64,000 nucleotides of DNA, taken from the NCBI GenBank assembly GCA_964016885.1, contig OZ024743.1, positions 6,572,001 to 6,636,000 of the forward strand, read 5' to 3'. Below, piece by piece: positions 41,491 to 63,608 of this stretch (position 1 is its first letter; each line of letters starts with the position of its first letter). The DNA comes from Eledone cirrhosa (lineage: Eukaryota). Below the pieces are notes generated by a model. The model was not told the origin of the DNA, ran no database searches, and was given only the letters and a program-made list of their open reading frames with translations. The position numbers and the translations under genes are program-made.

Positions 41491-41544
41491 TGCACAGCCA
41501 TACACAGGTTGAAAATCTGTTAGGTGAAATGCGCATTCTCTCTC

Positions 41545-41700
41545 TCCCTTACATTTCTTCTCTCTCACTTTCTATCCTTCTCTGGAAGAAATTTGCTGTA
41601 CTCAGGCCTGGAGAAGGATGGGCTCCTCTGGATTTAAAATGTGCCAGAAACACTGTATAACAATACAGCACCCCAATGATTCCATCAGGAGTAATGGTAC
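41545..41700 (+). repeat. Dispersed repeat of unknown class; reverse-complement copy at ~53430-53567
   Basis: CTTTCTATCCTTCTCTGGAAGAAATTTGCTGTACTCAGGCCTGGAGAAGGATGGGCTC resembles the reverse complement of GAGCTCATCCCTCTCCAGGTCTGAGTACAGCAGATTTTTCTAGAAAAGATAGAAAG. Confidence 0.75.
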
Positions 41701-42216: not shown

Positions 42217-42719
42217 GTAAGTATGACAAATTTGCCTTGAATTAAGCAAAATGGTTACTTAAATTATATACAATAATTGGATGAGAAAACTGATCATTTA
42301 ACACAACTTTAGAATGAATTAGCTTATTCAACTTTATCAATATTTCTTATTTTCTGATAATCAATTTAGCTATTCTAGAATAACAAAATATTTTTCAAAT
42401 ATTTATGTCTGAGAAAGCAATATATGAATAAGGAAGAAAAGAGATAGCTCAAGATAAACTTATAAAGCAGCAATCTGTTTCTGTGTTAACATATATCCTT
42501 CCTTCTTGGATATGAAATACTAAATTAAGATTTAGTATTTCACATTACTGACTTGAAATCTTATTGAATTATTTTTCAGATTTTCTATGATAAACAAAAT
42601 GTTGCGATGAAGTAAAAATGATAAATTAGTGTATGCTATGTGAATGGAATTTAAGTGAGGAAAAGTATGCAGAAGCTTATTTGTCTATATACATGCTTAT
42701 GCGAATCACAATTATCATC

Positions 42720-42850
42720 CATTCTTTCATGTTTGCTTGTGTTGGACAGATTATCACAGTGAATTCTTATTCAGATAAGTGGGATGACCATATCTCACTA
42801 ATGTCTGACATGGCTTCTACAGCTGGATGCCCTTCTGAACTCCAGCCAAA
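42720..42850 (-). mobile_element. Degenerate RTE-type 3' tail fragment
   Basis: TTCTACAGCTGGATGCCCTTC motif shared with 58432-58452 and 43533-43553. Confidence 0.6.
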
Positions 42851-42972
42851 GTGTATTGAGTGCATTTTGCCATGGCACCATTACTAGAGAAACTGTTACA
42901 GTATGCTTGACATTCATACATACATACATACATTCATACACACATATATACATTCATACATATATACATATA

Positions 42973-43050: not shown

Positions 43051-43406
43051 TATGTGTATGCATCACAAAGTTCCCAAACCAGACCTTAAAGAAACTAGAC
43101 CAGTACTCCAGTAAATAATGCATTTCCTATATTATTTATATTCAAGCACCATTTCTTTTACAGTAGTCCCTTGAGAACATATGCAGCAATCCCAGTGTAA
43201 AGCATTTTTCAGTACTATTTATTTTAAAATTGAAATGTTAATTCAGTTATAATTCTTTTAAAGAGAATTTTACTTTCTTTTTTTATTCCATCCTATATTT
43301 TCTCATAAGTGTTAATAATCATGTAAGATAATTTGGTTTTCTTGTAAGTTATCTATTGAGATATTGTTTGTACTTACCTTCAAGTAGTAGTCTATATCTT
43401 TCTTGT

Positions 43407-43751
43407 TACATCATCATCTTTGTTTAATGTACATGTTTCCATGCTGGCATGGGTTAGACAAGTTATCCTATTATGAACAGTGCCAGGTCAGGTGACCATG
43501 TCTCGCTCGTACAGAATCGATTTTGGCTTGGTTTCTACAGCTGGATGCCTTTCCTAGTGCCAGCCTCATTTACTGTAAGTACTGGGGGACTCCTACACAA
43601 CCACTTTACAGTGAGTACTAGGTGCTTTTTGTCGTGACGCTTACACAATCACTTTTAATGTGGACTGGGTGCTTTTTGTCGTGAACCCTACACGACCACT
43701 TTAAAGTGAGTACTGGGTGCTTTTTGCCGTGTCACCATCACAACCACTTTA
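43407..43751 (-). mobile_element. 5'-truncated RTE-type tail insertion carrying 3-4 satellite-like 48-bp units, flanked by a ~105-bp direct repeat
   Basis: (CAT)n tail at 43409 and TTTCTACAGCTGGATGCC motif. (C/T)CACTTT recurs at 43601, 43649, 43696 and 43744. Flanks 43302-43406 and 43752-43857 are near-identical. Confidence 0.85.
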
Positions 43752-44030
43752 CTCATAAGTATTAATCATCATGTAAGATATTTTTGGTTTTCTTGTAAGT
43801 TATCTATTGAGATATTGATTGCACTTACCTTCAAGTAGTAGACTCTGTCTTTCTTGTAATGTGTTTCCACTACTACACTGATCCAATGACATAAATAACC
43901 AGCAAAGTATTATTTCATCAAACATTACAAAACTATTTTTATTGAAGTATCTATAACACTTCAATTTAAAAGTTACAGGAGGTTTACTAGATTTGAAAAC
44001 AATATCACTTTAATATTAATACACACATAT

Positions 44031-44392
44031 GGAGGCACATGGCTTAGTGGTTAGAGCATTGGCCTGGCAATCGAAAGGTTGTGAGTTCAATTCTCAGACC
44101 GGGAGATGTGTTGTTTCCTTGAGCAAGACACTTTATTTCACATTGTTCCAGTTTACTCAGCTGTAGAAATGAGATGGTAGGGACTGGGGTCCCTATCATT
44201 CCACGGCAAAAAAGCACCCAGCCCACACTGTAAAGTAGACGTGTAGGTACCACAGCAAAAAAAGCACCCAGCACTCACTGTAAATGAGGTTGGTGTTAGG
44301 AAGGGCATCCAGCTGTAGAAATCAAGCCTGAATCAGTTCCTGTCCCACCCTTGCAAGCAGGGAAAAAGCGGACGTAAAATGATGATGATGAT
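44031..44392 (+). mobile_element. Full-length tRNA-derived SINE with CORE-like body and RTE-type tail ending in (GAT)n
   Basis: A box TGGCTTAGTGG, B box GAGTTCAATTC, and CCTTGAGCAAGACACTT..CAGCTGTAGAAATGAG. The last ~50 nt match the 3' end of RTE copy A. Confidence 0.88.
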
Positions 44393-44454
44393 AAATGTAT
44401 TTATTTCAAAATATAGTCATAAATACTGACATGGATTCAGAATTTTCCTCTTAA

Positions 44455-44625
44455 CCATCTTCTTCTTCCTTGCTGACGTATTCCTGAGAGGGTCAGGGGG
44501 GCACAGTTCTCAAACACTCCTTCCAGCGGATTCTGTCAGAAGCAACTGTCTCCAAATGATCCAGCTGGATCCCCAAGCATGACCAGCGAAGCTCATGAAT
44601 ATTATCCAACCATCTTTCAGATGAA
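44455..44625 (-). mobile_element. Short 3' remnant of another non-LTR retrotransposon with a (GAA)n tail
   Basis: Reverse frame reads RWLDNIHELRWSCLGIQLDHLETVASDRIRWKECL, like RTE-group C-termini (W.D.......A.DR..W), followed by GAAGAAGAAGA. Confidence 0.55.
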
Positions 44626-45733
44626 TGACCAATATAATTTCTATCCAAAATACTTCCTATCTTTTTGAACTTTTAATCTTGTTAATCTTGTCATTGGTGA
44701 CAACTGAAAGGGAGCTTTGGCGAGATCCTGTTGAGACTTGTACAGTTGTTGTGTTGCAGTTGCAGAATTATCAGAAACCTAAGAAGAAACATATAATTCC
44801 AATGCTTGTATACTTGTCCATGAATAAGTGATTACTCATGTATGATCATAGACTTAAAACTTGCTTTATATACCAACATTTGTGATAAAAGATTGTTGTA
44901 CATCCAAAGATTTACCAATATTTTTGACATAGCTACAGTTTAGTGCTCCAAACCCCAAATTTGTTTTTTGATACTTTCTTAATAATACATATTTTGTAAT
45001 GCAATTTTTCAGATATACGTTTTCCATGATGAAGATTCCTCCAATTAAGGACTTCTATATAGTATATAGAGTCAATATAATAATAGATATTAATGATGAC
45101 CTTATTGGCTTTTTTCTTAAAAATAAGATTTTTCTAATATGTCCTGACAAAGGAAATTTATTCACTACTAAACTAAAGCATAGGAAATACTTCTCACACC
45201 TATTTCCTGATTATTTGACCTTTCCATGCCCTACCAAATAGGCAGCCTATCCCTCACCTTTCTTCCTACTACACTTTGATAAATGTATCACCTACTCTTC
45301 AATCATGCTATATATATATGTAGTGAAAGTTTCATCTCATTTTCATTGTTTTGATTAGCTACTAATGTTTGTAAATCTTCGAAGTAATTGTTACAAACAC
45401 CCCCCCCCCCCCCCCACACACACACACACACACAGTCGACAGATATTGAGAACTGCTCCCTCAGTTTTAAGGTTTGATTTTATTTTTTCAATATTACAGA
45501 ATCATGAATGAAACTATTCTTCTTAATTTGGTAATAAATATAATGTAATCTATTTTGTATACACAGCTAGTAATATATATGATATGGCTTCTTGTATATG
45601 TGCATTTAGTAATACATGTATAATCCATTTTAATTGTGCATTTGGTAATACATACATGATCCATTTTGTATGTGCATAAAAATATGTATTTACAAAAATA
45701 TTTTTTCCCAAACTATGCTACATGTACATAGTG

Positions 45734-46005
45734 CAGCGGCGTGCAGAGCTCTGGTGATGCCCGGAGCAAATCTTGATTGTATGCCCCAAAGACTCAAGTA
45801 TAAGGCCTAATACACTGAGAAATATTATGAGAAAGGAAAACATTTTGAATATATAAACACAGATGAGACATAAAATAAACACTTTATTCGATTTTAATAT
45901 AAGTCAATCAAATTTATAAAGTTCTTTTCCCCAAATGATGCCCACATTCAAAAGATGCTCGAGGCCAACGCGCCATCGCCCCCCCCCCCCCCCTGCATGC
46001 TACTG
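45734..46005. mobile_element. Non-autonomous hAT-type DNA transposon (MITE)
   Basis: 8-bp TSD ACATAGTG at 45726-45733 and 46006-46013; imperfect TIRs CAGCGGCGTGCAG / CTGCATGCTACTG. Confidence 0.85.
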
Positions 46006-46239
46006 ACATAGTGGCAATTTTACGTAGCATGAGAATTTTCAAACTACCACAGCGCACTTTGTATTGTTTGTAGTATGTGTTATATTTAAGGAATTATGAA
46101 ATTTGTCTGGCTTATTGCTTTAATTGCATGTTTAATGGATGCAGAGGATATGTGAAGGCTGGAGACAAATGAATCAGGCATGTTCCATTGTATGTGTAAT
46201 GTTAGTGTGCATGAAGAATCATAGATGAATTGAGAGAAA

Positions 46240-46860
46240 ACTAGGCCTAAGAATTGTGCTTGAGAGAAGATTGCACTGATGAACCAATTGAACCCATACA
46301 TGGAAAATGAATGTAAATACTGTTGTGGAGCCATGGTCAATGATTTTGAAGTAAACCCGCTATCTTTCTGCTTTAGTGCAGATCAAACCCCTTGATACAT
46401 TGCCTTGAATGACACCATCAGAAGGAGTTTTAACACAGCCAGTTTTCCATCCCAGCTAGAGCCTGCTAGCCTCATTCGTGGTGAGGGTAAGGACCCAGAG
46501 GAGATAATCCTCTTCCCATTTGAGAAAGGTGCATTTCTAATCTTGGACACCATGTACTGTGACACATTCCCCATTGTTGCTTTGACCACAAAACCAGGCA
46601 CCACAGCCCATAATGTGGAGGAGAGAAATATAGCTAAATACTGAGTCTTGATTGACTTCTTTCTTTTCGTGCCGGTCATCATCAATACCTCAAGTTTCCT
46701 AGGTTTCCAAACTACCATTTCCTCCACAAAATCAGAATGAGGGCATCTCACTTGAGGAAGGGGCCCTGTGAGGTAAAGTGGCTGGTGCAGCAAATGTTGC
46801 TGGCTGTTCTCTGTAGCAATGCCATCACCATTTTGTCTACATGGTACAACTAAAATATAT
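46240..46860 (+). mobile_element. Decayed 3' part of a restriction-like-endonuclease (CRE-like) non-LTR retrotransposon
   Basis: Frame reads ECKYCCGAMV..LSFCFSA..*YIALNDTIRRSF..FPSQLEPASLIRGEGKDPEEI.LFPF..LILDT..DTF..EERNIAKY. This is a degenerate zinc knuckle plus the LND..LEP..DGKRPDG..D..K..KY pattern of RLE domains; it contains stops. Confidence 0.7.
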
Positions 46861-47309
46861 CACTCAGACTGGGGAGTTGAGTCTGTCGCTACCTCCCACC
46901 CTTTTCCTTACTTTTGCTATTTAAAATGTTTTCTCTTTTTTTTTCCATTTCTTTTCTTCTTTTTCTTTTTTCTAAATATGTAATCGTAGATGCGAGGACA
47001 TATATTGTTGATGACATGTTTGTTACTTAGTAAAAATTAATTTAATTAAATGCACAAATTATGATCAGTTTGTAAGAAGTCATATAGGGTTTGTCTTCAT
47101 TAATTCTTCTATGCAGTAATTGATTGCATGCTTTCATTTTTTAATTATCATTGTAATAAAACACAGGATCACATGACAAGCAATTTGTGATACGTTTGTT
47201 TTGGGAAGTGGTAATTTGAGCATGTATGGTCTTTGAGATCTTCCTCCCTACCTTTCTCTTTCACAGTGTTGACAAGACATACCCACATTCTAGATGGTCA
47301 GTAGTTTAA

Positions 47310-47484
47310 CATCAGCTATCTATAGATATCTACCTATGTATCTATCTATTTTCAGACAATAAAAAAAGCATCTATCAATCTATCTACCTATCTATCTGTT
47401 TGTCTTTCTATCTACCAGCCTACCTGTCTATCTATCTTTTTATCTATCTACCTACCTACCTACCTACATACCAACTTATACATC

Positions 47485-47520
<36 letters not shown>
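47310..47520. repeat. Compound microsatellite (TATC)n/(CTAC)n/(TG)n
   Basis: Direct reading. Confidence 0.9.
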
Positions 47521-47522
<2 letters not shown>

Positions 47523-47877
47523 GGCACATGGCTTAGTGGTTAGAGCACCAGGCTTACAATCGTGAGGTTGTGAGTTCAATTGCTGGATTGGGATGTGTGT
47601 TGTGTTCTTGAGCAAGACACTTTATTTCATGTTGCTCCAGTTCACTCAGCTGTAAAAATGAGTTGTGACATCACTAGGGCCAAGCTGTATCGACCTTTGC
47701 CTTTCCTTTGGACAACATGGGTTGCATGGAGAGGGGAGACTGGTATGAATGGAGAGGGGAGGCTGGTATGAATGGGTGACTGTTGGCCTTCCACAAACAA
47801 CTTTGCCCGGACTTGTGCCATGGAGGGGAACTTTCTAGGTACAAATCCTATGATCACTCATGACCAAAGGGGGTCTT

Positions 47878-47882
<5 letters not shown>
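47521..47882 (+). mobile_element. tRNA-derived CORE-like SINE with a different 3' tail from the 44031 copy; internal 22-bp tandem duplication
   Basis: Same A/B boxes and CORE-like block as 44031-44175. ATGGAGAGGGGAGRCTGGTATG occurs twice at ~47726-47770. A tail homolog lies at ~51560-51745. Confidence 0.85.
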
Positions 47883-47909
<27 letters not shown>

Positions 47910-47913
<4 letters not shown>

Positions 47914-48415
47914 ATGAAATTATTGTGTACAGTGCTCAGGTACACTACAACTCGTCAAAGGTGCATGTATAATACATAGAATAATATACAAATATCAGGG
48001 AAGTGAATAGTGTATGAGTCATGATATACATGTGTGTATGTGTATGGAGGGGGAACATTAGGTGTAGTGTTGGCGAATCTAGGGAAGCATTGAGGTTTTA
48101 AAGGATGCAGTGTCTTGACAGCTAACAACTGATGCAGGTAGTTTGTTCCATGAGCTGCCATCAGTGATCCAGGTGATGTCTTCAAGAAACTCGATAACTT
48201 GATCACAGCAGCTGGAGTTAAATCCAAATTGCGAGGGCCGGATAAGGCTGTGAGAGTTCCAGAAGTTCCAAAGTGTTTCTCTGACACAGGATTCCATCAG
48301 TTTGGCAATGCAACTTGTAAGACTGACTGGACGATAGTTCACAGGTGATGTGCGGTCACCCTTTTTGAACAGAGGAATGACACTGGCAGTTTTCCACTGT
48401 TCTGGAGTAGCACCA
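47910..48415 (-). mobile_element. CR1/L2-group LINE fragment with the RT core deleted, bounded by (TA)n on both sides
   Basis: IPLFKKGDR..NYRPVSLTSCIAKLME..QFGF is fused in frame to the C-terminal WNKLP.SVV....ASFK motif, followed by a 3' UTR ending in a TA tract. Confidence 0.8.
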
Positions 48416-49123
48416 TTGTTATATATATATATATATATTTATTTAGGTTTGTTGGTTTACCACTGGATAGAACTGGATAGAACTGGTCATTCCGTATGGT
48501 CAACCTCGATGTAGTTTTATGGAGAGCACTGAACGTAATGCAACTCACCCGTCTTCGTTTGTGTAGTTGGTGGTGAGAGTACAGAGTTAATTATTATAAA
48601 TATATATATATATATCCACACATATATATATCTATATATATATATATATCCACTTATCTATATCTATCTACATATCTATTTATGTATATTGAAAATGTCT
48701 CTATCTTCAGATAATAACAATAACACAGTAGAAACCCTATTACCAGAAGATACATAAATAGATAGATAGAACAAAGTCATTGTAATTTAGTGAATATATG
48801 TTTGATGATTAGAGAAAATATAGAAGAAAATTATTTTAATTGATTGAAATGAATGTAAAATGAAATACAGCAATGGCCAGAATGACAAGAGCGAGAAGGT
48901 CAAGGATAATCAGGGATTCATGCGTCAAAGAATGTTGTAATCAAGGAATTATTGAATTTATTGTTTTTTTAATATAAACTCTGACATTTTTGACAAATGC
49001 TATTCTAAATTAAAATGTTTTCTGAAATATATCTATAAAATTGAACTGAAAGTAAAAGGTTTTCTACCAAATTTATTACACTTTCATGGTAATGATAAGA
49101 ATATTTATGAACAGAATTGTAAC

Positions 49124-49419
49124 CAGGGCCGGATTTAATAGGAGGGGGGGGACAAAAGGAGCAATTGTCCCGAGCCCCCTGCAGTGGGGGGCACCAGCGA
49201 CGGCTGTATCAATTTATTTGTGCCCTCAGCTGGGCTTTTTAGTTTTAGGATGGTTAGAATTTTGAATTTAATGTATGTATAACTTTTCAATTCCAAATAC
49301 TTGTGCCAAGCTAACTTTGATGTGTAAAATTGGGGGGTTGCTATGTCTTCTAATTTTTTGTGTATGAGAAGCCCCCAAAAGAAGTGCCCCTGGCCCCACA
49401 AGGTCTAAATCCAACCCTG
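49124..49419. mobile_element. Non-autonomous hAT-type DNA transposon (MITE)
   Basis: 8-bp TSD ATTGTAAC at 49116-49123 and 49420-49427; TIRs CAGGGCCGGATTTA / TAAATCCAACCCTG; GC-rich subterminal motifs. Confidence 0.88.
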
Positions 49420-49614
49420 ATTGTAACAACATAAAATTAGAAAAATAAACATTGGTATACTCTATACTATATTAGGTTGTCATTTATAAACACAAACAAT
49501 AACATAAATATAGTCAGTGATGAAATTGTTACTTGTTTATTACATCTGTACTTCAAATTTTTAACAAATTTAGATCCCAAGATGAAATATTTTTCATTGA
49601 CTTTCTTTCTTTAG

Positions 49615-49812
49615 ATCATCATCATCGTCATTTTATGTCCATTTTCTATGGTTAGCATGGGTTGAACAGGTTGTCACCACTCAATATAAGTTGGGTAACT
49701 TATATTGTTCATATGTTTCATATTATGGCATAGTTTTTACAGCTGCATGCCCTTCCTAATACCAACCACTTTACAGAGTGTACTGAGAGCATTTTATCAT
49801 GGTACTATCACT
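49615..49812 (-). mobile_element. RTE-type tail fragment with a single satellite-like unit
   Basis: (CAT)n, TTTTACAGCTGCATGCCCTTCCTAATACCAACCACTTTACAGAGTGTACTGAGAGCATTTTATCATGG. Confidence 0.75.
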
Positions 49813-50035
49813 ATCACTTAACAAAGGGAATTGGGTGAATTTTATAGTGGCATCAATGCAACCATTTTACAGATATATTTCATTTAATTTATATAGTCTA
49901 AAAAATTGATTAGCTAGGATATTATCCCTAAAATACAATAATAAAAACGAAAATAATATACAATAGAAGTATTTTTAAATATGTTTGAAAACAAATTGGA
50001 TATTAAATGGAACCTATATTTCTTTTTAATTTCAG

Positions 50036-50132
50036 CTATGTTATCCAACCTGCAGAAAGACAAGCTACACCAGTGGGTATGAAAAAAAGGAATATCTTAC
50101 CTGGTAGAGGAATTGATTCCATTAGATTATAA
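50036..50132 (+). CDS. KCNT: Terminal coding exon of the Slo2/KCNT-like channel
   Basis: Acceptor tttctttttaatttcAG, phase-compatible with the 42216 donor (GT|C = Val). Reads (V)YVIQPAERQATPVGMKKRNILPGRGIDSIRL*, completing GDLVYVIQP. An AT-rich 3' UTR follows. Confidence 0.72.
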
Positions 50133-50585
50133 GATTAATAATACAATACTGTTATAACAGATGCAATTTCATCTCATTTATTTTATTTTTTAAATATTAT
50201 TACTTGAGATTTATCATTTTATTAATAATTTTAAAAAATAGCAATCTTCATTTTTTAAAAATATAAGTTGAAGAAATTAAAATATAAACAATAATCCACA
50301 TTCATCAATACTACTGTTGAAATTTTCCCAAATATAAATTTGAAATACACAGTTAAATTACACAGCATATGCAGACATGAATTAAATTGTGCATGCATGC
50401 ATGTATGTACAGGTTTTTTTATTGTTTGTTGCAGCAATACGGAAATAATGCAAATAATTCTTTTCTTTTTTCTGTATTAACTCAGAAGCAACTTTTTTTG
50501 AATTCTAATTAATGTTCAGAAAAACAGAATAATTATTTTCATGAATTATAACAAAAATTGTTTCTGAAGGATATGATAAGAAATC

Positions 50586-50591
50586 AATAAA
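50586..50591 (+). terminator. Candidate polyadenylation signal AATAAA for the channel transcript
   Basis: AATAAA about 450 bp after the stop; weak evidence in AT-rich DNA. Confidence 0.25.
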
Positions 50592-51165
50592 ATATCAATA
50601 TAGTATTATTAAAAATACTTCGACAAAATATTGCATTTTTCAGTTTATAGAAACCAACAAAGAACAGTACCTTTATTTTTATATACATGAAGATATGTTG
50701 CTCTATTCTGTGTAGCTGAAAATTGACACTACTTCCACTTTAAAATTAGCAGTATGAAGTACATCTATTTGTAAAAATACTTTTCTATTAACATATATAA
50801 CAATATCTAGAATTTTCAAAAGTCATACTAGCCATGAAAATAGATTAAAAGCATTTCTTTTTTGTAAGTGACACTGTCCACTACACTATTCACAACATAA
50901 TTAGATAGTTGTGGAGTTGAAAGTACATTTATCACAAATAAATAGATTAAAATATGAGGTAACAGAAAATATCATCTATCATTGATAAGTGTGGGATATA
51001 ACTCCGAGTAACAGGACTTGCAAAAGTATTATTTACCAAATTGCTAAGTAAACGTAATAAAATTGTACCTATATTGGTGTAAATAAATTATGACAAATTT
51101 GATGAGTATGGAGTTGTCTCCCATACATTTTGATAGTCATCAACTAGTATTAATTTCCTTTTATT

Positions 51166-51348
51166 GCGGTGGATTGGCAGTATCAGTGGAGGGTCGGACG
51201 CCATGCTTTCCAGCATAGTTACGTCCCTTTACGATCTGAGTTCAAATCCCGCCGAATTTGACTTTGCCTTTCATCCTTACGGGGTCGATAAAATAAAGTA
51301 CCAGTAATGCACTGGGTAATTGCTGGCCTTGTGCCTAAAGTAGAGACA
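51166..51348 (+). mobile_element. tRNA-derived SINE with a Deu/Nin-like central domain and a 17-bp TSD
   Basis: TSD ATTAATTTCCTTTTATT at 51149-51165 and 51349-51365; B box GAGTTCAAATCCC; GCCTTTCATCCTTACGGGGTCGATAAAATAAAGTACCAG. The domain name is from recall. Confidence 0.85.
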
Positions 51349-51559
51349 ATTAATTTCCTTTTATTGGAATATACTTTTAACTTTTTAAAGTTGTAATAAT
51401 TCAATATGTTTTCACATACGTAACTACCTTTTGTAATTGTTTTATTTGTGATATTTTAAAACTAAAATATGAAGTATTTTTACTGGAATATAATTGGGAT
51501 TGATAGTCCCATACTTTAATATGCTGCTCCAGCCAATTCTACGTAATGAGTTCTGATAT

Positions 51560-51745
51560 TACTGCTGTCAAACTGTATTGGCATTTGTCTTTCTCTTGGA
51601 AAACATTAGTAGTGTAGAGAGGAAAGGTTGATGTACATGGGTGACTCCTTGTCTTCTACAAAAACACCTTGCCTAGGCTTGTGCCTTAGAGAAGAACTTT
51701 CTATGTGCAAACCGATGAGCAGTAATGAGCAATAGTTGGCCTTCA
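51560..51745 (+). mobile_element. Degenerate 3' half of the 47521-type SINE
   Basis: CAAACTGTATTGGCATTTG..CTTGCCTAGGCTTGTGCCTTAGAGAAGAACTTTCTATGTGCAA aligns with 47680-47845. Confidence 0.65.
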
Positions 51746-52099
51746 AATTACTTTAAAAGACCAGCAAACATGAAATATATAATTCAGATTGTTATTAATA
51801 AGGAGAAATGAGTTTTAACAGCTGCCAAATTGTTGGATTTTCCGTTCCAAATTATTTTGTTTTTTCATACTAATAATTTATAGTCTAATATTTTTTTCTT
51901 TTCCAAACATTCTATCCAAGAAAATATCAAGCAATAAAATTATATGAATCTTACCTTATGTGTTTATGATTACAAACTTTTAAAATATTTTATACTTGAA
52001 AGTATTGAAACATGTCAATTAATAGTATGATAATACTAGTTGTTTATTATATTATATTATATTCCTATTCTTTTAATGTGGTAGATTGGTTGCAGAACA

Positions 52100-52250
52100 G
52101 TAAAACCAGCTATAACTGGCCACTTATACTGGTGTTAAGGTATTGTTCTCAAAATAAATAATCTTGTAGATTCGATATTATATGAAATAATTATGAGATA
52201 AAGCCTTTACCATGAAAATATAATAGCATATATCGAGTAATAAAAATGCT
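52100..52250 (+). mobile_element. Partial copy of the piggyBac-type MITE at 56789
   Basis: GGTATTGTTCTCAAAATAAATA..ATAATTATGAGATAAA..TTTACCATGAAA..GAGTAATA shared with 56875-56995. Confidence 0.75.
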
Positions 52251-52420
52251 TGTAGTATTTCTTCTGGCATTTTACTTTCTGAGTTCAAATCCCATTGAGG
52301 CTAGTTTTGTCTTTCATCCTTCTGTATTTGATAAAATAATGTACCCATAAAGTATTAGGGTCAATATAGATGACTGTTCCCTTCCACCAAGTTTAAAGCC
52401 TTGTATTTTAAAGTGGTAGA
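52245..52420 (+). mobile_element. Degenerate Deu/Nin-like SINE
   Basis: CTGAGTTCAAATCCC..TTTTGTCTTTCATCCTT..GATAAAATAATGTACC..GCCTTGT, as in 51166-51348. Confidence 0.7.
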
Positions 52421-52879
52421 TTTATTAGAAAAACAAAAGATGCTTTATGGTTCGAGTTGACTACCACACTGTTTTACATATTTAAAGTCAACAATAATTT
52501 TATGCAACAATACTTTCTTACAAAATTGCCACTGTACTAAAAAAATCCACAGTATTTAATTTCATTTGCCATAGGATAAAGAAAGTAAAGTACAAAACAT
52601 GGTTTCAGATTGTAGTCATGTAGAAAATTTCTATTCAACCAAAGATATATATATCCACAGGGAAAATGAAAATTCTAAAAATAATAAGATTAGATCAGAA
52701 AAGGGTTCACTAGAAAAACCTTATAAATGAAGAGTAATATAGTTTATATGAAATATTGTGAGATCTATATTTGAACTTGTTTTAGAAAAGCCAATACAAA
52801 GCAAGTTAAAAATAGGAGGGTGGCATTTTAGCTCCAAATTATCAAAGAAATATAAAGTACTAGATTACCCATGACTTGT

Positions 52880-53410
52880 TGGGTCATGTTCACTTAAAAA
52901 TAATTTTTAAATAATTAAAATATACACAGACATGTATATAATGTAAAATGAAATTAGAAAATCATTCTCACTTAAGAATATTCTTTAAATATGCCAAAAC
53001 ATATTCTTTTAATCATATTCACTTGAAAATAACTTTTTAAAAAATTAAAATATTCTTTGTGTAAAGAAAGCCTAAATATAGATTCTTACTGTATGACAAC
53101 TTGTATTTTCGAAATCACATTCACTTTAAAATATTTCTAAATAATTAAAATATTCTGTTTAACAATAGCAAAAATATAAACATTTACTGTAAAAACAACT
53201 CATATTTTTCAGTCATATTCACTTTGAAATATTTTTTTTTTAATAACTAAAATATCGTCTGTTTAATCGTCTGTTTAAAGAAAGCTGAAATATAGATAGT
53301 TAAAGTTCAAACAACTTGTATTTTTGAAATCATATTCACTGACAAATCACTGAAAAAAAATTTTTTAATGAATTTTTAAAATTCTATTCACTTAAAAATA
53401 TTTTTTGATG
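52880..53410. repeat. Degenerate AT-rich ~100-bp tandem repeat
   Basis: CAYATTCACT..AAATA..TAAAATA..ACAACTYRTATTTT recurs at ~53014, 53116, 53214 and 53331, with partial units at either side. Confidence 0.7.
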
Positions 53411-53567
53411 GTCCCGTATGTATGGTCCCGTAACTCCTGATAGAATTATAGGGGTGCCATATTGACATACAGCATTTCTTGGGCATTTAAGCCTGGCAGA
53501 GCTCATCCCTCTCCAGGTCTGAGTACAGCAGATTTTTCTAGAAAAGATAGAAAGTGAGAAAGAGGAA

Positions 53568-56463
53568 ATCATCATCATCATCATCATTTTACGTCCGCTT
53601 TTCCCTGCTTGCAAGGGTGGGACGGGTCTTATTCAGCACAGCATCTCTCCACTCGTCACGGTCCCTCGTCATCTCCACCGTGAGCTTCAATGATCTGAGG
53701 TCTGTTCTCACCACCTCCGCCCATGTTTTTCGTGGTCTACCTCTACCACGTCTTCCTTCAACTGGCATTTCCTGGCACTTCTTCACCCATCGGTCATCCT
53801 CCATGCGCATCACATGTCCATACCACCTCAGTCTCCTCTCCCGTACACTACATTCTATCCCTCTCAGACACAGTCTCTCTCTCAACACATTTATGCTGGG
53901 TCGTTCACGCACATTTACACTGCACATCCAACGGAGCATGCTTGCCTCATTTCTCTCCAGCCGTCGCATATCCTCTGCGGTTGCTGCCCATGTCTCACTA
54001 CCATGCAGCATCGCGCTCCTCACACAGGCATCATACAACCGGCCTTTCGTACGCAGGGAGAAACCCTTCTTCGTCAACAGAGGAAGCAGCTCCCTAAACT
54101 TCTTCCAACCCGTCCTTATTCTAGATACTATGACCTCGGAACACCCTCCTCCCATGCTAATCTGATCTCCTAGGTACCGGAAGCTATCCACCACTTCTAT
54201 AGCGCCCTCTCGCATTTGAAAAATGTGTCTATCAGTGCGACTACTACTGTCTAATTTCCCTGTACATCTACTGCATACATATTTCTCCCTACCTGTTAGT
54301 TTGCCTGCTATCCCGCTACATCTCTTGTGTACCCAGGACCTGCATTGTGTACATTTTATAGAATTTATGCCAGTTCCTTTTCTGCATATCGAACATGGCC
54401 ATTTCCCTGACGGAATCAGGGTTTTGTCCTCTTTTCTACTCATCAACACTTTTGTCTTAGCTAGATTTACTCTCAGTCCTCTTGCTTCCAACTGCTGTTT
54501 CCATAGCCGGAATTTATTCTCTAGCTCCTCTACTGATTCTGCCATAAGAGCCAGATCGTCAGCATAGAGAAGTTCCCATGGACAGCCAGTCTTAAACTCC
54601 TCTGTTATGGCTTGGAGGACTATAATGAACAAGAGCGGGCTGAGGACCGAACCTTGATGTACTCCTACTTGTATCTGGAATTCCTCACTAAACTCCATTC
54701 CTACCCTGACTTTACTGAGAGTACCTCTGTACAAAGTTTGCACTGTCCTCACAAGCCATTCCTCAACACCCAGCTTCCTTAGGGACCACCAGATGACAGA
54801 TCGGGGTACCCTATCAAAGGCCTTCTCTAGGTCAACAAAGGCTAAGTATAGTGGCTTATTCTTCTCTAAGAACCTCTCTTGCATTTGTCTCACCAAGAAG
54901 AGGGCATCTGTTGTACTCTTCCCAGGCACAAAACCAAACTGCATCTCATCTAGTTTGACCCTTTCTCTAATTAGTTGTGCTAAAATCCTTTCTGCCACTT
55001 TCATAACCTGATCTATCAGTTTTATACCCCTATAATTGCTCCTCTCCAAAGCATCCCCTTTACCTTTGTAGCAATTTATGAGAATACTGCTGCACCAGTC
55101 TTTGGGTATGACACCACCATATATAGCCTGATTGATGATGCGTGCAACCAGTTTAGTGCCTACGTCCCCTGATGCCTTCAGCATCTCAGCAACTATTCCC
55201 GATGGTCCGGCCGCCTTACCATTTTTCATTTCCCTAATCGCCTCTTGGACCCTATATTCGTCAATCTCAATAGCTGGTCCCTCTGTCGGATCTACCAAGG
55301 GTAATTTCTCTCTCTCCCATTCGTTCTCCACATTCATCAGTCTCTCATAATGACATTTCCAGGCCTCCTTTTTCTGGTCATTCGTGACACTAAGTACACC
55401 GGCATCATCCCGGACACATTTATCACCAACAACATCCTGATTTGCATTGACACACTGCCTTGCAATGTGGAACACTGCACGCCTCTGATCTTCCCGTCGC
55501 AGAACATTGGCAAACCTCCTACTCTCTGCCTCCCTGCATGCTAAGTACACCTGACGTCTAGCTTCTCTCTTAGTGGCTGTATATTCTTCTCTACTCCCAC
55601 CCTTTTTCCAAGCCTTCCATGCTCGTCTTTTGTCTCTAATAGCCTTATCTACTGTGCTGTTCCACTACCAGGTCACTCTCTGTCTGGTTGGAGCTCTGCT
55701 CCAGCCACAGGTTTCATCAGTAGCCTGCAGCAAGTTGTCACGTAAGAACTTCCAGTTATTATCTATGTCATACGTCTCTAAATCGTCTTCTTTTTCGTCA
55801 TATACATCTTGAAGGGCTTTCCTAAATTTGAATTTTAGTGAAAGGTCTTTTAGCTTCCAAACCTTTCTTCTCCACACCTTCCCATATGTTTCATTCCATC
55901 TCTTGCTTACTGAGATATCACTAACAACTAACCTATGCTGTGGGGTACATTCTTCCCCAGGGTATGCCTTGGTATTAGACACTATCTGCCTGTCCTGCTG
56001 CCTAACTAGCAGGAAGTCAATCTGGCTTATGTGCTCACCAGATTTGTAGGTTATTAGGTGATTGGCAGGTTTCTGGAAGTTTGTGTTGCAAATAGTCAAT
56101 GTACTTGCATCACAAAATTCAAGAAGTCTCACTCCTTCTTCATTTCTTGAACCGTAACCGTGCCCACCATGTACCCCAATGTAGCCATCCTGGAGCTGTC
56201 CAACATGACCATTGAAGTCTCCTGCTAGCATAACGATGTCGCCGTCCTCTGTCATTGTGGTTGTTTGCAAAAGTTGCTCATAAAAGCAGTCTTTCTCATC
56301 TTTGCCTAGGCCTGCTTGGGGAGCATAGACCGAGATGATTGTCAGTAGTCTCCTACCTACAACTAATCTAAGCTTAATTATTCGATTACTAACTCAAACT
56401 ACCTCTATTGTCTTATTGATCCATTTCTCAGCCAGGATGTCTTATTGATCCATTTCTCAGCCA
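53568..56463 (-). mobile_element. RTE-clade LINE copy A, 5'-truncated, (GAT)n tail
   Basis: APE motifs (GDFNGHVG, QIDFLL, QHRLVV) and RT motifs (QGSVLSPLLF, YADD, RYLG); tail ATCATCATC at 53568. Confidence 0.96.
53589..56400 (-). pseudogene. APE-RT(+PHD finger) polyprotein of RTE copy A, with one in-frame TAG at 55665-55667
   Basis: ORFs 55665-56270 and 53589-55550 are in the same frame. The gap reads VTW*WNSTVDKAIRDKRRAWKAWKKGGSREEY, versus VTWWWN in copy C. Confidence 0.9.
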
Positions 56464-56489
56464 TTTCAATGAGAATGAAATATAGAAAA

Positions 56490-56652
56490 AGAATCAACCC
56501 CAGTACTAAACTGGTTCTTTTTTTATCGGCCTCAAAAGATGAAAGGCAAAGTTGAACTGGGGGGGGGGGGGGGGGTTAACCTCAGAGAGCTGGAACGAAT
56601 ACTGCAAAGCATTCTATCCAATGTTCTAATGACTCTGCCAATTCACCACCCA
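56490..56652 (-). mobile_element. Deu/Nin-like SINE, reverse orientation, with an internal poly-G tract
   Basis: CCCAGTACTAAACTGGTTCTTTTTTTATCGGCCTCAAAAGATGAAAGGCAAAGTTGA is the reverse complement of the 51255-51320 block. Confidence 0.78.
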
Positions 56653-56788
56653 TATAAATACACATACAATGATCCAAATTACAACATATCAAATATGTTC
56701 CAAGTGTTCCATGACTGACTTCAGTATTTTCTCAATAAAACACTGAAACTAATTCTATTTTTCCTGTTGATCAGAAATGTTGATTTAA

Positions 56789-57002
56789 CCCTTTTGCATT
56801 TAAACTGGCCATATCCAGCCAGAATGCTCTCACCTCCTTCTGTTCAAACCTGCCATAACTAGCTGTTCATGTTATGGTATTGTTCTCAAAATAAATACTA
56901 TCAAAATCTAGTAGATTCAATATCATGTGAGATAATTATGAGATAAAATGTTTTACCATGAAAATACAATAGTATATATTGAGTAATAGAAATGCTAAAC
57001 GG
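56789..57002. mobile_element. piggyBac-type MITE
   Basis: TTAA|CCCTTTTGCATT ... AATGCTAAACGG|TTCA: imperfect TIRs, TTAA on the left and one mismatch on the right. A second partial copy lies at 52100. Confidence 0.7.
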
Positions 57003-57223
57003 TTCAGTCATTTTATAATAATTTTTCTTTAATGAAATAATTTACGAAGATGCCTTGATACAAATTTTAGAATAATATTTCTAGTGTAATTTCTGTATTT
57101 TCATACACCTCCAAATATCTTGTTAATCATTAAAATCATTATGATTGTTGCTCTTATATTTCAGAAAATAATTTTTTAAACGAAATAAATAAATAGATAA
57201 AACTTTATTTTCTTTTGGTTAAA

Positions 57224-57892
57224 TCTCTCTCTATATAAAATTCTTTGTCTCTCTGCCTCTCTGTCTTTTCCTTATACATTCTCAAATGGCTTGACCAAAT
57301 CAAATCAAATTTTACAAGGTAATAGTATTAGACCCTGGGATTAACAACATGTAATTTTTATTTTCATGTGAAACTCTGTGTTTGTATGAATGTATGTCTG
57401 TGTGTTTTTTTATAAGTGTATGTTTGTGTGAGTGTATGTGTGCCTGTCCGTTTATATTTATATTCTCATACCATTAAATTAGCAGTTAATACATTTGCTT
57501 ATATTTGGTTAACTTACACTATATACAAAAATAATAATTAATATATATTTCTTTTGGATGGTGATACTTATTTGTTTACAATATTGAAAAGAAATGTTTT
57601 TATTCAAGCTACATGTTTCTCTCACAGTTAACTCTATGTTGGCTGCTCACAAGTTGGAAGCAGCAACAATTTATTCATTTGATCACCAACAAAAAATTAC
57701 ACAATGAATATTGTTTACCCTGAGGTGCTTCAAGATTGACAGACTTTCATTTCTAAATTCTATTATCATTACAATTTTGATATTTTTTTATTTTGAAATA
57801 ATTATGAGAAAAAATATATCTCTTCATATTTATTGTTTACTAATCTGAATAAGAACAGCAGTAACCCGGGCACCGCCGGGTCATTTAGCTAG
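57224..57892 (+). mobile_element. Non-autonomous Helitron
   Basis: A|TCTCTCTCTATATAAAA 5' end; GC-rich hairpin ACCCGGGCACCGCCGGGT shortly before a CTAG|T 3' end; no TSD. The 5' boundary is less certain. Confidence 0.72.
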
Positions 57893-58159
57893 TATTGTAT
57901 AAATGTTCTCTGTTTCTATGTACTGTTACATTTCATAGCTTTTAAATTTTGGAGGAAGGGTTGAATGTTTTGTTCTCATATCCATATATGAAGGTTATAT
58001 AGACAGATCAATAATTGAGTTGGGTCCATAACTTATATGGATGATCTTGTGTCAACCTTCTGCAAAACGCAAGTAACAGGTAGATACACAATAAAAAACT
58101 AAATACATGTAAACGAAACTTCGTTTTTCTCAATATATATATATGTATTTTTTTTTTCA

Positions 58160-58292
58160 ACTAAAGAAATTTTAGCCTGATAGTGGGGTTTAGAACTCAC
58201 TAAAAAAATGGAAAAAGATGAGTGTCAATGCTCATCTTTTTCCATTTCTTAGAGGGTTCTAAATTCCACTATCAGGCTAAAATTTCTTTAGT
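58160..58292. repeat. Fold-back inverted repeat with ~65-bp arms and almost no loop
   Basis: ACTAAAGAAATTTTAGCCTGATAGTGG...GGAAAAAGATGAG pairs with CTCATCTTTTTCC...CCACTATCAGGCTAAAATTTCTTTAGT. Confidence 0.93.
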
Positions 58293-58312
58293 CAAAAAAT
58301 CCAGTGAAAGCT

Positions 58313-60600
58313 TCATCATCATCATCATCACCGTTTTACGTCTGTTCTTCCATGCTAGCATGGGTTAGACGGGTTGTCCTGTTGTGGGCTGACCATGCCT
58401 TGCTCATACAGGAACTGATTTTGGCTTGATTTCTACAGCTGGATGCCCTTCCTAACACCAACCTCATTTACAGTGAGTGCTGGGTGCTTTTTCCGTGGCG
58501 CCTACACGTCCACTTTACAGTGTGGGCTGGGTGCTTTTTTGCCGTGGTACCTCCATGACCACCTTGCAGTGGGAGGGTGTGGGGGCATTATTGTCTATAT
58601 GCTTCAGCTTGTACTCATGGGAGTCGGGTCTTCTGTATTACTGCGTGACACCAGAAGTCCAGTTGTGTGTCATTGCCTTTGAGAGGTGTAATTGAGTAAG
58701 GTCGGCTTTTATCACCTCATCCCAGGTCTTCTTGGGTCTCCCCACTCCGCGGTTTCCATTGACTTCTACTGCTCTGCACCTTTTTATGCAGCTGTCATCC
58801 TTCATACACATCACATGTCAACGCCTCTTCTGCACACAGCATTTGATTCCTCTTATGCTCAGTCTCTCTCTCAATTCATTTATGCTTTGTCGTTCGCGTA
58901 TATTACTATTACACATCCATTGGAGCACGCAGGCTTCATTTCTTTCTAATCAGCGCCCAGGTCTCACTACCATGTAACATTGCTGTTCGTATACACGCAT
59001 CATACAGTCTGCCTTTCATTTTGAGGGAGAAGCCTTTTGCAGCTAGCCGTGGCAGTAGTTCCCTGAACTTCTTCCATCCCGTTCTTACCCTAGTTATTGT
59101 ACTTTCTGAACACCCACCTCCACTGCTAATTCGGTCACCTAGGTATCAGAAGCTGTCTACTGTTTCTACAGAGCCCTCCCAGAGATTGGTGGTACTTGTT
59201 TCCTGTGGCTGTTTGCTGCTTGCTGTCCCAGCACAGCTGCTGCATGTGAAGCCTACATTCTTAATTAAGCTTCCTGAGATCCCGCTACATCTCTTGTGTA
59301 CCCATTGTTTACATTTGGGGCAGAGAATGGAGTTCCTACCTACACCTTTCCTACATACTGAGCAAGGCCATTTCCCTGAGGGGATCTGGGTTCTGTTTTT
59401 TCGTCTACTTACAAGGACCTTAGTCTTTGTCATGTTGACTTTGAGACCCTTTCTTTCTAGTCCCTGCTTCCAAGTTTGGAATTTCTTCTCTAGTTCTACC
59501 GTAGATTCAGCTATAAGTGTGAGGTCATCAGCATACAGGAGTTCCCATGGGCATCTGGTCTTATACTCCTCCGTTATTGCCTGCAGGACTATGATGAACA
59601 GGAGAGGGCTAAGAACAGAGCCTTGGTGAACACCAACCTGTACGCTAAATTCCTCATTATACTCATTGCTAATCCTAACTTTGCTGACTGCTCCCCTATA
59701 CATGGCTTGTACAGCTACCACAAACCATTCATCTACTCCTAGTTTTCTAAGAGCCCACCAGATTATAGCACGTGGAACTCTGTCAAAGGCTTTCTCGAGA
59801 TTGACGAATGCCAGGTAGAGAGGCTTACTTTTAGCTAGGTACTTTTCCTGTAACTGCCTCACAAGGAAGAGGGCATCAGTGGTGCCTCTTCCTGGTACAA
59901 ACCCAAATTGCATCTCATCTAGTTTCACCCGGTCCCTAATCAACTGTGCTATAACTCTTTCTGTTACTTTCATGACCTGGTCCATCAGCTTTATACCTCT
60001 ATAGTTTCCTCTATCTAGTGCATCACCTTTACCTTTGTAGCTGTTGACAATGATGCTACTGCACCAATCTTTTGGTATGACACCTTCTAGTATTACCTGG
60101 TTAACAATACGTGTGGTTATAGTGTGACCTACAGACCCAGATGCTTTCAGCATCTCGGCAGCTATACCCGATGGACCGGTTGCCTTCCCCATCTTCATAT
60201 TTTTGATTGCCTTACTTACTACGCTGCTGCTGACTTGTACTGCTGGGCCCTCTATAAGGTCTACTTGGGGTAGGGTCTCTTCTTCCCATGCATTTTCCTC
60301 GTTTAGTAATCTATCATAATGGCTCTTCCATGCATCTTTCTTCTCAGCACTTGTGAGGGCAAGCTCACCTTTATCATTCCGGATACACTTCTCTCCAATG
60401 ACATCACAATTCTCTCTGACACTCTGCTTCGCAATCTTGAACACCTCCTGTTTCTGGTCCACACGTTGCAAAACATGTTTGAATTTTCTATCCTCTGCTT
60501 CCCTCCTAGCTAAGTATACTTGTCGCCTAGCTTCCTTCTTGGTCTCTATGTAATGTACCCTGCTCCCCCCGTTCTTCCATTCTTTCCATGCCTGTCTCTA
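58313..60600 (-). mobile_element. RTE-clade LINE copy B, 5'-truncated, with stops and deletions and a long 3' UTR holding 2-3 satellite-like units
   Basis: ORF 59146-60471 with QGSVLSPLLF/YADD and a PHD finger; (CAT)n at 58313; UTR units at 58462, 58510 and 58559. Confidence 0.95.
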
Positions 60601-60694
60601 TTTCTAATTTCAAACTCGCTCGCTGTTTCAAAATATACTTACTCATATATATATATATATAAAAGAAAATGTTCGCTCTACATGGCTAAATACA

Positions 60695-60967
60695 ATAAAT
60701 GTAATCTGAGTTTTTTATAGACTCAATTTTATAGCCATGTCAGTAGAATGAACCCTTCATTCTTGCTCTTGTGTTGGCATGTGAACTCTGACAGTTTGGC
60801 AGGTGAACAGTGAGCTGTACTGATGAAGGGTGATAACCAGAAACATTAGTGTCAACACAAGAGCAAGAATGAAGGGTTCATTCTACTGACATGGCTATAA
60901 AATTGAGGTTTGTTTGCATAATTGCAAACGAATCGAATGTTATTAATATTCGAAAAACTCAGATTAC

Positions 60968-60973
<6 letters not shown>
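60695..60973. repeat. Nested inverted-repeat element (21-bp outer and 58-bp inner arms) between (TA)n tracts
   Basis: Outer arms ATAAATGTAATCTGAGTTTTT at 60695-60715 / 60953-60973. Inner arms 60722-60779 / 60850-60907 differ at one position. Confidence 0.92.
60815..60858 (+). ncRNA. Minimal type I hammerhead ribozyme-like motif (Penelope-like-element style), possibly degenerate
   Basis: CTGATGA (60820-60826), AGGGTGATAACCA, GAAA (60840-60843), short stem III ACA-TTAG-TGT and a GTC cleavage triplet at 60851-60853. Stem I is weak (TGT/ACA). Confidence 0.55.
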
Positions 60974-61002
<29 letters not shown>

Positions 61003-61005
<3 letters not shown>

Positions 61006-63608
61006 CAAAGCATATTACTTGATGCTTTCGACAGTAAGGAAGAACATTTAGAGTCGGACAATATAGAGGGAGAGTGGGAATTTCTGAAAGCAAACCTGCT
61101 GTTGGCGACAGACGAAGTCTGTGGCTGGAGCAGGCCTGTAGGCAGGAGGAGAGTAACATGGTGGTGGAACAGTAAGGTGGAGGGGTCAATTAAGGCCAAA
61201 AAGCAGGCTTGGAAAGTATGGCGGGATGGGGGAAGTAGAGAAGACTATCAAGTGGCCAGGAGGGAAGCTAGGAGACAAGTGTACTTAGCAAGAAGGGAAG
61301 CTGAGGAAAGAAAGTTCAAGCATGTTCTACAACGCGATGACCAAAAACGTGAGGTGTTCAGGATTGCTAGGCAATGCGTCAAGGAAAACCGTGATATTGT
61401 CGGGGAGAAGTGTGTACTAAACGACGATGGCACACTTGCCATCACCGACGCTGATAAGAAGGTAGCTTGGAAGTGTCACTATGAAAGGCTACTAAATGAG
61501 GAGAATAAATGGGAGAAAGACAGTCTCCCCCATATCGACCCAATAGAGGGACCAGCAGTGTTAGTCGAGGGGAGTATAATAAGTAAGGCAATCAAGGATA
61601 TGAAGACGGGTAAGGCGGCTGGGCCTTCGGAAATAGTTGCTGAGATGCTGAAGGCATCTGGCACGGTGGGACACACCATGGTCACCTGCATAGTTAACCA
61701 AGTCGTACAGAATGGGGTTGTTCCGAAGGACTGGCATAGCAGCATCATCGTTAACTGTTATAAGGGTAAAGGAGACGCCCTAGATAGGAGTAACTATAGA
61801 GGCATTAAATTAATCGACCAGGTCATGAAGGTCACGGAAAAAGTAATAGCGCAACTAATCAGAGAGAGAATTGACCTAGATGAAATGCAGTTCGGGTTTG
61901 TGTCAGGCAAAAGTACCACAGACACTTTTCATAGTACGACAACTACAGGAGAAGTACCTAGCTAAAGGTAAACCCCTCTACTTAGCTTTTGTCGACTTGG
62001 AGAAAGCCTTTGACAGAGTCCCCCGCTCCATTATCTGGTGGGCTCTTAGAAAACTAGGCGTTGACGAATGGCTTGTGAGGGCTATACAAGCCATGTATAA
62101 AGAAACAGTCAGCAAGGTTAGAATTAACAACGAATATAGTGAAGAGTTTAGCGTAAAAGTTGGCGTCCATCAGGGCTCTGTTCTCAGCCCACTACTATTT
62201 ATTATTGCCCTTCAGGCTATAACAGAGGAGTTCAAGACAGGCTGCCCATGGGAACTCCTATACGCAGACGACCTGACACTCATAGCAGAATCAATGGCCG
62301 AGCTAGAGAAGAAATTCCAAACATGGAAGCACGGCCTAGAGTCAAAAGGACTTAAAATTAACCTGGCTAAGACCAAAGTACTAGTTTGTAGGAAAGAAAA
62401 CAAGGCGGCGGTCCCTTCTGGGAAATGGTCGTGCTCGGTGTGTAGGAAAGGCGTAGGTAGAAACTCCATTTTATGTCCTAAATGCAAAGTATGGGTGCAT
62501 AAAAGATGTAGTGGGATCACAGGTAAGCTAACTAAGAACATAGATTTTACATGTGGCCGGTGCTCTGGTGCAATAAGTAGCAGCAAGTGCCCACAAAATA
62601 CTAGCTCTTTCAATTGCGCAGAGGGTTCTATAGAAATAGTGGACAGCTTCTGTTACCTGGGCGATAAAATCAGCAGTGGGGGATGGTGCTCTGAAAGTAC
62701 TGTAGCTAGAGTCAGAACTGGTTGGAAAAAGTTCAGAGAGCTTATACCACTATTAGCTGCTAAAGGGTTCTCCCTAAAAATGAAAGGCAGGTTGTACGAT
62801 GCCTGCATACGAACAGCAATGCTGCATGGCAGTGAGACCTGGGCATTATGTGCAGAGGATATACGCAGACTAGAGAGGAACGAAGCTTGCATGCTCCGCT
62901 GGATGTGTAACAGTAATATACGTGAACGGCAAAGCATAAACGAACTAAGGAAAAAATTAGAGATAAGAGGGATCAGATGTTGTTTACTCGAGAGAAGGCT
63001 ACGTTGTTATGGACACGTGATGCGCATGAAAGTCGATAGCTGTATAACAAAGTGCAGGGCAATAAAGATAGACGGTAGTCACGGAATAGGCAGACCTAGA
63101 AAAACCTGGGACGAGCTGATAAACTCCGACATCACACACTTACACCTCTCCAAGACAATGTCACTGGACCGAGACCTTTGGCGGTACTCAGTAACAGAGA
63201 AGACCCGCCTTACCTAAATATATAGTAAAACCTACTCCAGCCAGTAGGCATCTCTAACAAAATACACCCCGTCCCACCACCACCACCACCACCACCCCGT
63301 TCTATGTAAAGTTATGTTGGTGCCGCGCCATCGAGGCCGAAACAAATGAGATCGTGTAGGTGTCACGACAAAAAAACACACAGTCCACGCTGTAATGTGG
63401 CCGTGTAGGCAACACGGTAAAAACCTCCCAGACCCACACTGTAAATGTGGTTGGTGTTAGGAAGGGCATCCAACTGTAGAAAACCTGCCAGACAGTCCTA
63501 TGCGAGCAAGACAATCACTCTTGCCTCAAGTGGGACTACCCTCGTCCAAACCCATGCAAGCGTGGAACACGGACGTTAAACGTTGATGATGATGATGATG
63601 ATGATGAT
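61003..63608 (+). mobile_element. RTE-clade LINE copy C, 5'-truncated, one frameshift near 61925, long 3' UTR and (GAT)n tail
   Basis: ORFs 60922-61965 and 61880-63217 join at KSTTDT/LFIVRQLQEKY. RT motifs and a PHD finger are present; satellite-like units at ~63355-63450 are in reverse orientation. Confidence 0.96.

Follow-up and report, generated by a model that had tools for sequence, protein, structure and literature searches.

Satellite arrays probably grown from a 48-bp tandem module in the 3′ untranslated region of RTE-like LINEs of Eledone cirrhosa

The 64,000-nucleotide window analysed here (Eledone cirrhosa, assembly GCA_964016885.1, contig OZ024743.1, positions 6,572,001 to 6,636,000 of the forward strand) contains the right part of a satellite array embedded in a long interspersed nuclear element (LINE) that resembles the RTE clade. 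The array fills positions 1-40698 on the minus strand, where a 48/49-bp unit is repeated 837 times with a 95% match. The whole array is 56,890 bp long, corresponding to ~1,170 units, of which the window holds the right 40.7 kb. It lies within the 3′ untranslated region (UTR) of a single old insertion of the RTE-like type. The window array is free of Ns and contains 160 distinct units, with variants graded along its length. The 49-bp unit type makes up about two thirds of the array (773 of 1,168 units) and is present only as the terminal unit in most other arrays.

The array is embedded in register, with the element's own parts on both sides. It is adjoined at 40699-40869 (minus strand) by the 5′ part of the host 3′ UTR and the end of the open reading frame (ORF), which are 76-80% like the flanks of two shorter arrays, L024 and L042. 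Next to them, at 40871-41451 (minus strand), is a frameshifted, internally deleted, and 5′-truncated remnant of the host reverse transcriptase (RT). The remnant was recognized by tblastn (8e-54 across three frames) and by blastn similarity of 67-72%, with ~50-60 gap positions, to the window elements RTE A, B, and C. The upstream end of the array (L012:3689-3810) precedes the window by 16.2 kb and was examined as a prediction: an array grown inside the element should carry the motif GGATGCCYTTCC and the element's tail there. At this end, (CAT)n is followed by the 3′ end of the element, by the motif with one mismatch, and then, in register, by the first unit, so that the motif and the (TGA)n tail are both present. 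The host tail is 13% diverged.

Five short copies of the unit are located to the right of the array, and each adjoins the GGATGCCYTTCC motif, as the original prediction had stated. In the element sense, the units are positioned in the 3′ UTR directly 5′ of the motif, ~130-150 nt before the tail. Unit spans were measured by BLAST and include ~0.3-0.5 unit of partial flank. A 5′-truncated copy of the old type (43410-43751, minus strand) retains its tail, the motif at 43543-43554, and four units (43560-43752, span 4.0), of which the terminal one is internally deleted. A chimeric short interspersed nuclear element (SINE; 44031-44392, plus strand) has two units at 44201-44290 (span 44201-44299, 2.1) followed by the motif (44299-44310, minus). 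An old copy at 49630-49872 (minus strand, tail-side limit approximate) has the motif with one mismatch at 49745-49756, and its span of 2.2 (49765-49872) consists of one clear unit and a decayed second one. The 5′-truncated RTE B (58314-60597, minus strand) carries the motif at 58441-58452 and 2.7 units at 58452-58581. RTE C (61006-63608, plus strand), also 5′-truncated, contains two diverged units at 63355-63450 (span 63344-63460, 2.4), the motif at 63460-63471 (minus), and a (TGA)n tail. The ladder of copy numbers that had been described for the window is therefore real in its five short copies and its 837-copy array, except that the rung at 49760-49810 is not strictly a single unit. A sixth motif at 42825-42836 belongs to a decayed old copy (42715-42880, minus strand, outer limits approximate) in which the unit falls below threshold.

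The truncated copy is enclosed by a direct repeat of 110 bp, with its left copy at 43298-43406 and its right copy at 43748-43857 (both plus strand; 93% over 75 nt and 86% over 43 nt; 96/104). The repeat (43298-43857) is likely an unusually long target-site duplication, and could date that insertion. A clear target-site duplication was found only for this copy at 43.3-43.9 kb; the remaining matches are mostly microsatellite or neighboring-repeat.

RTE A, B, and C encode an RT and a PHD finger, and all end in (TGA)n. In RTE A (53569-56393, minus strand), the endonuclease, RT, and PHD finger share one frame interrupted by one stop, and the ORF runs to the tail. The domains are ordered Exo_endo_phos_2 and then RVT_1 (and PHD), and the best homologues are proteins of ~1,050 amino acids with the same domains. 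RTE A contains neither the unit, as searched by BLAST, nor the motif. The elements display features of the RTE clade: a single ORF with an apurinic/apyrimidinic endonuclease before the RT in RTE A, a 3′ end of short tandem repeats, no long terminal repeat (LTR), and many 5′-truncated copies. We call them RTE-like, a label based on architecture, as the homologue search returned no named RTE references.

The SINE has a head (44040-44097), a central domain, the two units, and the motif, and its 3′ end is almost the same as in RTE A. The weakly tRNA-like head scores 27.6 bits (E 0.059) with the Rfam tRNA model, short of the gathering score, 29, and ARAGORN gave no tRNA. The last ~45 nt match RTE A (53569-53640) almost exactly. 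The unit and motif come from a B-type UTR, and the extreme 3′ end comes from RTE A, which is likely, judged from this shared terminus, the partner LINE mobilizing the SINE. The SINE may resemble the octopus OK/OR1/OR2 elements or CORE-SINEs. No hammerhead or other ribozyme, as carried by tandem retrozymes, was found among the 12 Rfam matches at E<=1 within 39000-64000.

The exact 17-mer of the motif has 106,094 matches genome-wide, and a 20-mer of the unit has 118,580, with 0 matches for the reversed sequence of either. Shuffled copies of 80 sample loci contained 0 unit loci. Random anchors scored 0 in 399 of 400 cases, and the remaining one scored at least 10 units, as expected of an anchor that falls in a real array of the sample. 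Of the tail-motif search with a histogram of unit number that had been proposed, the motif count is thus genome-wide, and the histogram comes from samples: 107 evenly spaced 10-kb pieces on 14 contigs, totaling 1.07 Mb. They yielded 62 unit loci, of which 16 have <1.25 units, 17 have 1.25-2, 19 have 2-3, three have 3-4, four have 4-10, and three have 48-66; 55 of the 62 are shorter than four units. Extrapolation suggests ~8,400 arrays of at least 10 units in the genome (Poisson 95% 1,700-24,500). The unit accounts for roughly 0.7-1.2% of the 3-Gb genome.

Two other giant arrays, located on other chromosomes, also end in the element's tail. The array at C28:101382536-101513632 spans 131 kb and was read contiguously. 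The array at C1:2295292-2483159 is ~188 kb long; all 14 pieces sampled from it consist of array, and 132 kb of it were seen. Neither has an element body at the end opposite the tail. All three giant arrays are co-oriented with the tail motif and fused to it in register. More generally, 23 of the 27 arrays of at least nine units end in the tail signature, and the C1 array, with its tail read separately, brings the number to 24. The C28 and C1 arrays were found among the matches listed, so more giant arrays probably exist, and the positions of these two are uninformative about chromosomal preference. The C28 array includes a 3.7-kb inverted block near its tail end (L039:3880-7617). One piece of the C1 array, L198, was considered an interruption and proved to be array that a filter had missed. 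It contains open frames of up to 397 codons encoding a 16-residue repeat, since 48 is divisible by 3 and stops are often absent from one frame; they are likely spurious and could mislead gene callers.

Each large array has its own consensus, the feature that had been proposed for a test in independent large arrays. A 21-mer taken from the window array has 853 matches in the genome, all of them inside that array. A 19-mer from the C1 array has 2,785 matches genome-wide, 1,697 of them in the 132 kb read and 0 in the other fetched loci. Consensus sequences of the giant arrays differ by 8-19%. Unit distances in the long head-to-tail arrays (57, 131, and ~188 kb) are 0.04-0.14 within an array and 0.19-0.25 between arrays, in line with satellite DNA under concerted evolution; over 24 arrays, the values are 0.078 within and 0.172 between loci. 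Among 272 units, the nearest neighbor belongs to the same locus for 194 and is tied for 42.

Two types of rearrangement are visible within arrays. In the B-type array L050, eight full units combine, as read by eye, the front part of one B source unit with the rear part of the other, and these chimeric units all carry one change that the other B copies listed do not have. On this by-eye reading, they are as predicted by unequal exchange. Tandem duplications of blocks of 0.5-5.1 kb are present in the giant arrays. The two largest window blocks, 5.1 and 4.9 kb, have four and five differing positions, as against the 13% divergence of the host tail, and such near-identical blocks could partly be assembly duplicates. 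A 44-unit higher-order period that seemed common to the three giant arrays turned out to be a mixture of various block duplications of 0.5-5.1 kb. Hairpin-driven instability was rejected as unsupported, because trimers of the unit fold no better than shuffles (DNA z -1.59 to +1.33, 6/6). The RNA folding of the 3′ UTR has z -1.51 versus shuffles.

Unit number was compared among subfamilies in 145 untargeted loci, minus four that belong to a different, 112-bp type. The SINE (n=34) has a mode of ~1.5 units and a maximum of 3.6, with 0/34 reaching four. The B type (n=27) has a mode of 2.6 and outliers of 9.8 and 49, and the C type (n=24) a mode of 2.4 and a maximum of 3.3. An old catch-all class (n=46) ranges from 0.5 to 48 units, and 10 loci are unclassified. 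Young subfamilies keep a modal unit number that is largely fixed. Since they are modal, none of the 34 SINEs has four units, and RTE A is unit-free, the short window rungs of 1, 2, and 3 units are mostly a matter of subfamily and truncation rather than of growth.

Old-type copies with an intact 5′ boundary have 2.8, 4.5, 5.0, 6.2, 10.9, 16.9, 26.6, 26.7, and ~1,170 units. 5′ truncation cannot explain this range, because the 5′ boundary is intact in these copies. With this range and the other giant arrays, unit number is not fixed among old-type copies and expanded loci exist beyond the window, so the outcome that would have refuted the original proposal is not observed. Age was compared in RTE-type copies with at least two units, with those of up to 4% tail divergence counted as young. 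At least four units were found in 0 of 21 young and 12 of 39 older copies (p=0.005), and expansion is seen only in older copies in this sample. The original proposal of an unstable minisatellite that seeds arrays is supported, with growth seen in older copies; the short window rungs are mostly subfamily differences, and the SINE is a poor seed. The idea that only one old subfamily expands was rejected as not significant (Fisher p 0.05-1.0), and B-type copies reach 9.8 and 49 units.

Rows of 18.8, 11, and 4.8 "units" initially assigned to the C type are actually a different repeat of 112 bp. This second expandable module, which includes the motif, is found in C-type elements, with ~8 copies at L048:47-947 and fewer at L047:2247-3147. 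Its junction has 10,129 matches with a strand excess of ~2,500, which may point to a giant array of this module. The junction is mostly single among the 100 places listed, indicating that source elements do acquire duplications. A variant of the 48-bp unit that is older is likewise present in 2-6 copies (L160:3932-4236, L163:3784-4026, and window 49765-49872), which places the multi-unit state before the present subfamilies.

We consider it very probable (about 0.85) that the 3′ UTR of an RTE-like LINE lineage carries the unit as a tandem module, beside the same motif at >100,000 sites, and that the window array grew in place after insertion, because it sits between the tail of one old copy and the RT remnant of the same copy. 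We hypothesize that source elements would carry ~1.5-6 units, set per subfamily, and that retrotransposition with 5′ truncation would spread them. After insertion, misaligned exchange or slippage among similar neighboring units may add whole units and spread private mutations. In longer arrays, duplication of 0.5-5 kb blocks could become runaway, producing heavy-tailed sizes of up to ~190 kb. Multiple similar starting units probably raise the odds of growth, which would explain why 48-mer growth is rare in the 1.5-unit SINE and in the C type with its diverged units. The expansion process looks neutral.

Several results weigh against growth in place. Over all subfamilies, no correlation is seen between unit number and tail divergence (Spearman -0.11, p=0.24), and at a threshold of at least nine units the difference between 0/21 young and 6/39 older copies is not significant (p=0.08). 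"Age" here means how far a tail diverges from a catch-all consensus, and it is confounded by subfamily and by the unit number of the source element. The nearest neighbor of 36 of the 272 units is at another locus. Three of the 27 arrays of at least nine units (12, 25, and 66 units) have no adjoining tail, and the search for target-site duplications gave none for the giant arrays. Array lengths come from one assembly.

It is also possible, though improbable, that extra units are made during reverse transcription by template slippage or jumping. SINE copies differ in whole-unit steps (1.5, 2.6, and 3.6) at low divergence, the mostly single 112-bp junction points to duplications in source elements, and slippage during retrotransposition is invoked for RTE microsatellites in passages of PMC2887409. 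Against it, at least four units are reached by 0/21 young RTE copies and 0/34 SINEs. It may account for steps of one unit and not for satellites with kilobase-scale block duplications inside them.

Less probable still is the absence of any growth after insertion, with fixed multi-unit source arrays shortened to various extents by 5′ truncation. The modal young subfamilies fit this explanation, as do the many arrays without any 5′ element body and the similar first-unit variant in L077 and L050. The four-unit window copy is truncated, and its units match 79%, making them less alike than the direct repeats flanking it (86-93%). Fixed source arrays account for the short rungs only and are refuted for long arrays, since copies with an intact 5′ end span 2.8 to ~1,170 units and each array has a private consensus. 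Arrays of 57-188 kb far exceed a LINE transcript.

A satellite that existed first and gave its unit to the LINE, with elements later inserting beside satellite blocks, is very improbable: the unit-free RTE A implies a past gain (or loss) of the 3′ UTR with the unit, but the three giant arrays are co-oriented and in register with the tail motif, each with a different consensus, and older elements carry a decayed low-copy module. Equally improbable is inflation of the giant arrays by assembly artefacts, for which near-identical 5-kb duplicates could be falsely duplicated haplotypes and reads placed on 40700-41700 come mostly from other repeat copies; the absence of Ns, the variant gradients among 160 distinct units, and three independent arrays with distinct consensus speak against it, and an artefact could alter the length of the arrays, not their existence.

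Transposon-borne satellites are known from other systems. A paper by Macas from 2009 reportedly names the 3′ UTR in its title, in the context of Ogre/Tat elements. According to passages of PMC7004042, satellites of Lathyrus sativus expanded from arrays inside Ogre/Tat LTR retrotransposons; as in E. cirrhosa, short tandem arrays in dispersed retrotransposons occasionally grow into satellites. Compared with what these passages describe, the carriers here are a non-LTR LINE and a SINE, the array is positioned between the ORF and the 3′ tail, and individual giant arrays keep the element's tail, each with a private consensus. Tetris of Drosophila virilis is said to be a DNA transposon that disperses satellite-like central repeats. 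Cg_HINE Helentrons of another mollusc, Crassostrea gigas, disperse satellite-like central repeats genome-wide, as described in passages of PMC7492417. Unlike these DNA transposons, as far as the passages describe them, the E. cirrhosa unit is spread by target-primed reverse transcription, and growth is apparently post-insertional.

RTE-clade LINEs are sources of microsatellite families in passages of PMC2887409. The elements described here resemble them, and the octopus RTE-2_OV as portrayed in passages of PMC9115989, in having a single ORF for endonuclease and RT, frequent 3′ partial copies, and a simple-repeat tail. In the RTE microsatellites, as those passages present them, the repeat is terminal, whereas an internal 48-bp module of the 3′ UTR grows here. 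No such unit is mentioned for RTE-2_OV in the passages of PMC9115989 or in 8 of its 12 supplement files.

SVA elements carry a variable number tandem repeat (VNTR). To our knowledge, the tandem repeats of CHRS SINEs and SVA reach only tens of units. CHRS SINEs contain a variable 20-nt tandem motif (passages of PMC3531059), and like them and SVA, the SINE described here is a non-autonomous retroposon whose internal tandem repeat varies. It differs from what is reported of them in that the arrays here reach thousands of units and the SINE is the poorest seed. LINE untranslated regions and short internal arrays are listed as satellite sources in passages of a 2025 review (PMC12628747). No description of this 48-bp repeat was found in the literature open to search, a scope outside which Repbase, Dfam, and subscription papers fall. 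That transposon-borne repeats become satellites is already known; the scale and the datable tail beside the arrays are notable here.

The birth of satellites is hard to study, as traces of the seed and of how growth began are usually lost. This genome provides thousands of natural replicates with a known seed, a datable non-repeated tail, and lengths over three orders of magnitude. Array birth rate, size thresholds, and homogenization are directly measurable in one genome, and mid-sized arrays are candidate VNTR markers. We speculate, with considerable doubt, that the lineage may act as a satellite factory, in which ~ten thousand independent arrays of all sizes from 2 to ~4,000 units would stem from one seed, the 112-bp module would behave likewise, the odds of runaway growth in each subfamily would depend on how many units its source element carries and how similar they are, and some giant arrays would be functional heterochromatin or centromeric DNA.

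Other repeats were observed in the window and beyond it. Another high-copy dispersed repeat, unrelated to the unit, is located at 41540-41650 and 53420-53569, with very high read depth at 41550-41617. Long fold-back inverted repeats at 58152-58301 and 60770-60900 are possibly MITE-like or local inversions, and the former yields spurious miRNA matches. An unrelated 66-bp tandem array (L027:7260-10000, at least 41 copies, 96% match) is positioned 1.2 kb from an array of 43 units. The stretch at 50014-50110, which follows a pyrimidine tract and AG, may by eye be an exon of a host gene, in which case the elements to the right of the array may be intronic.

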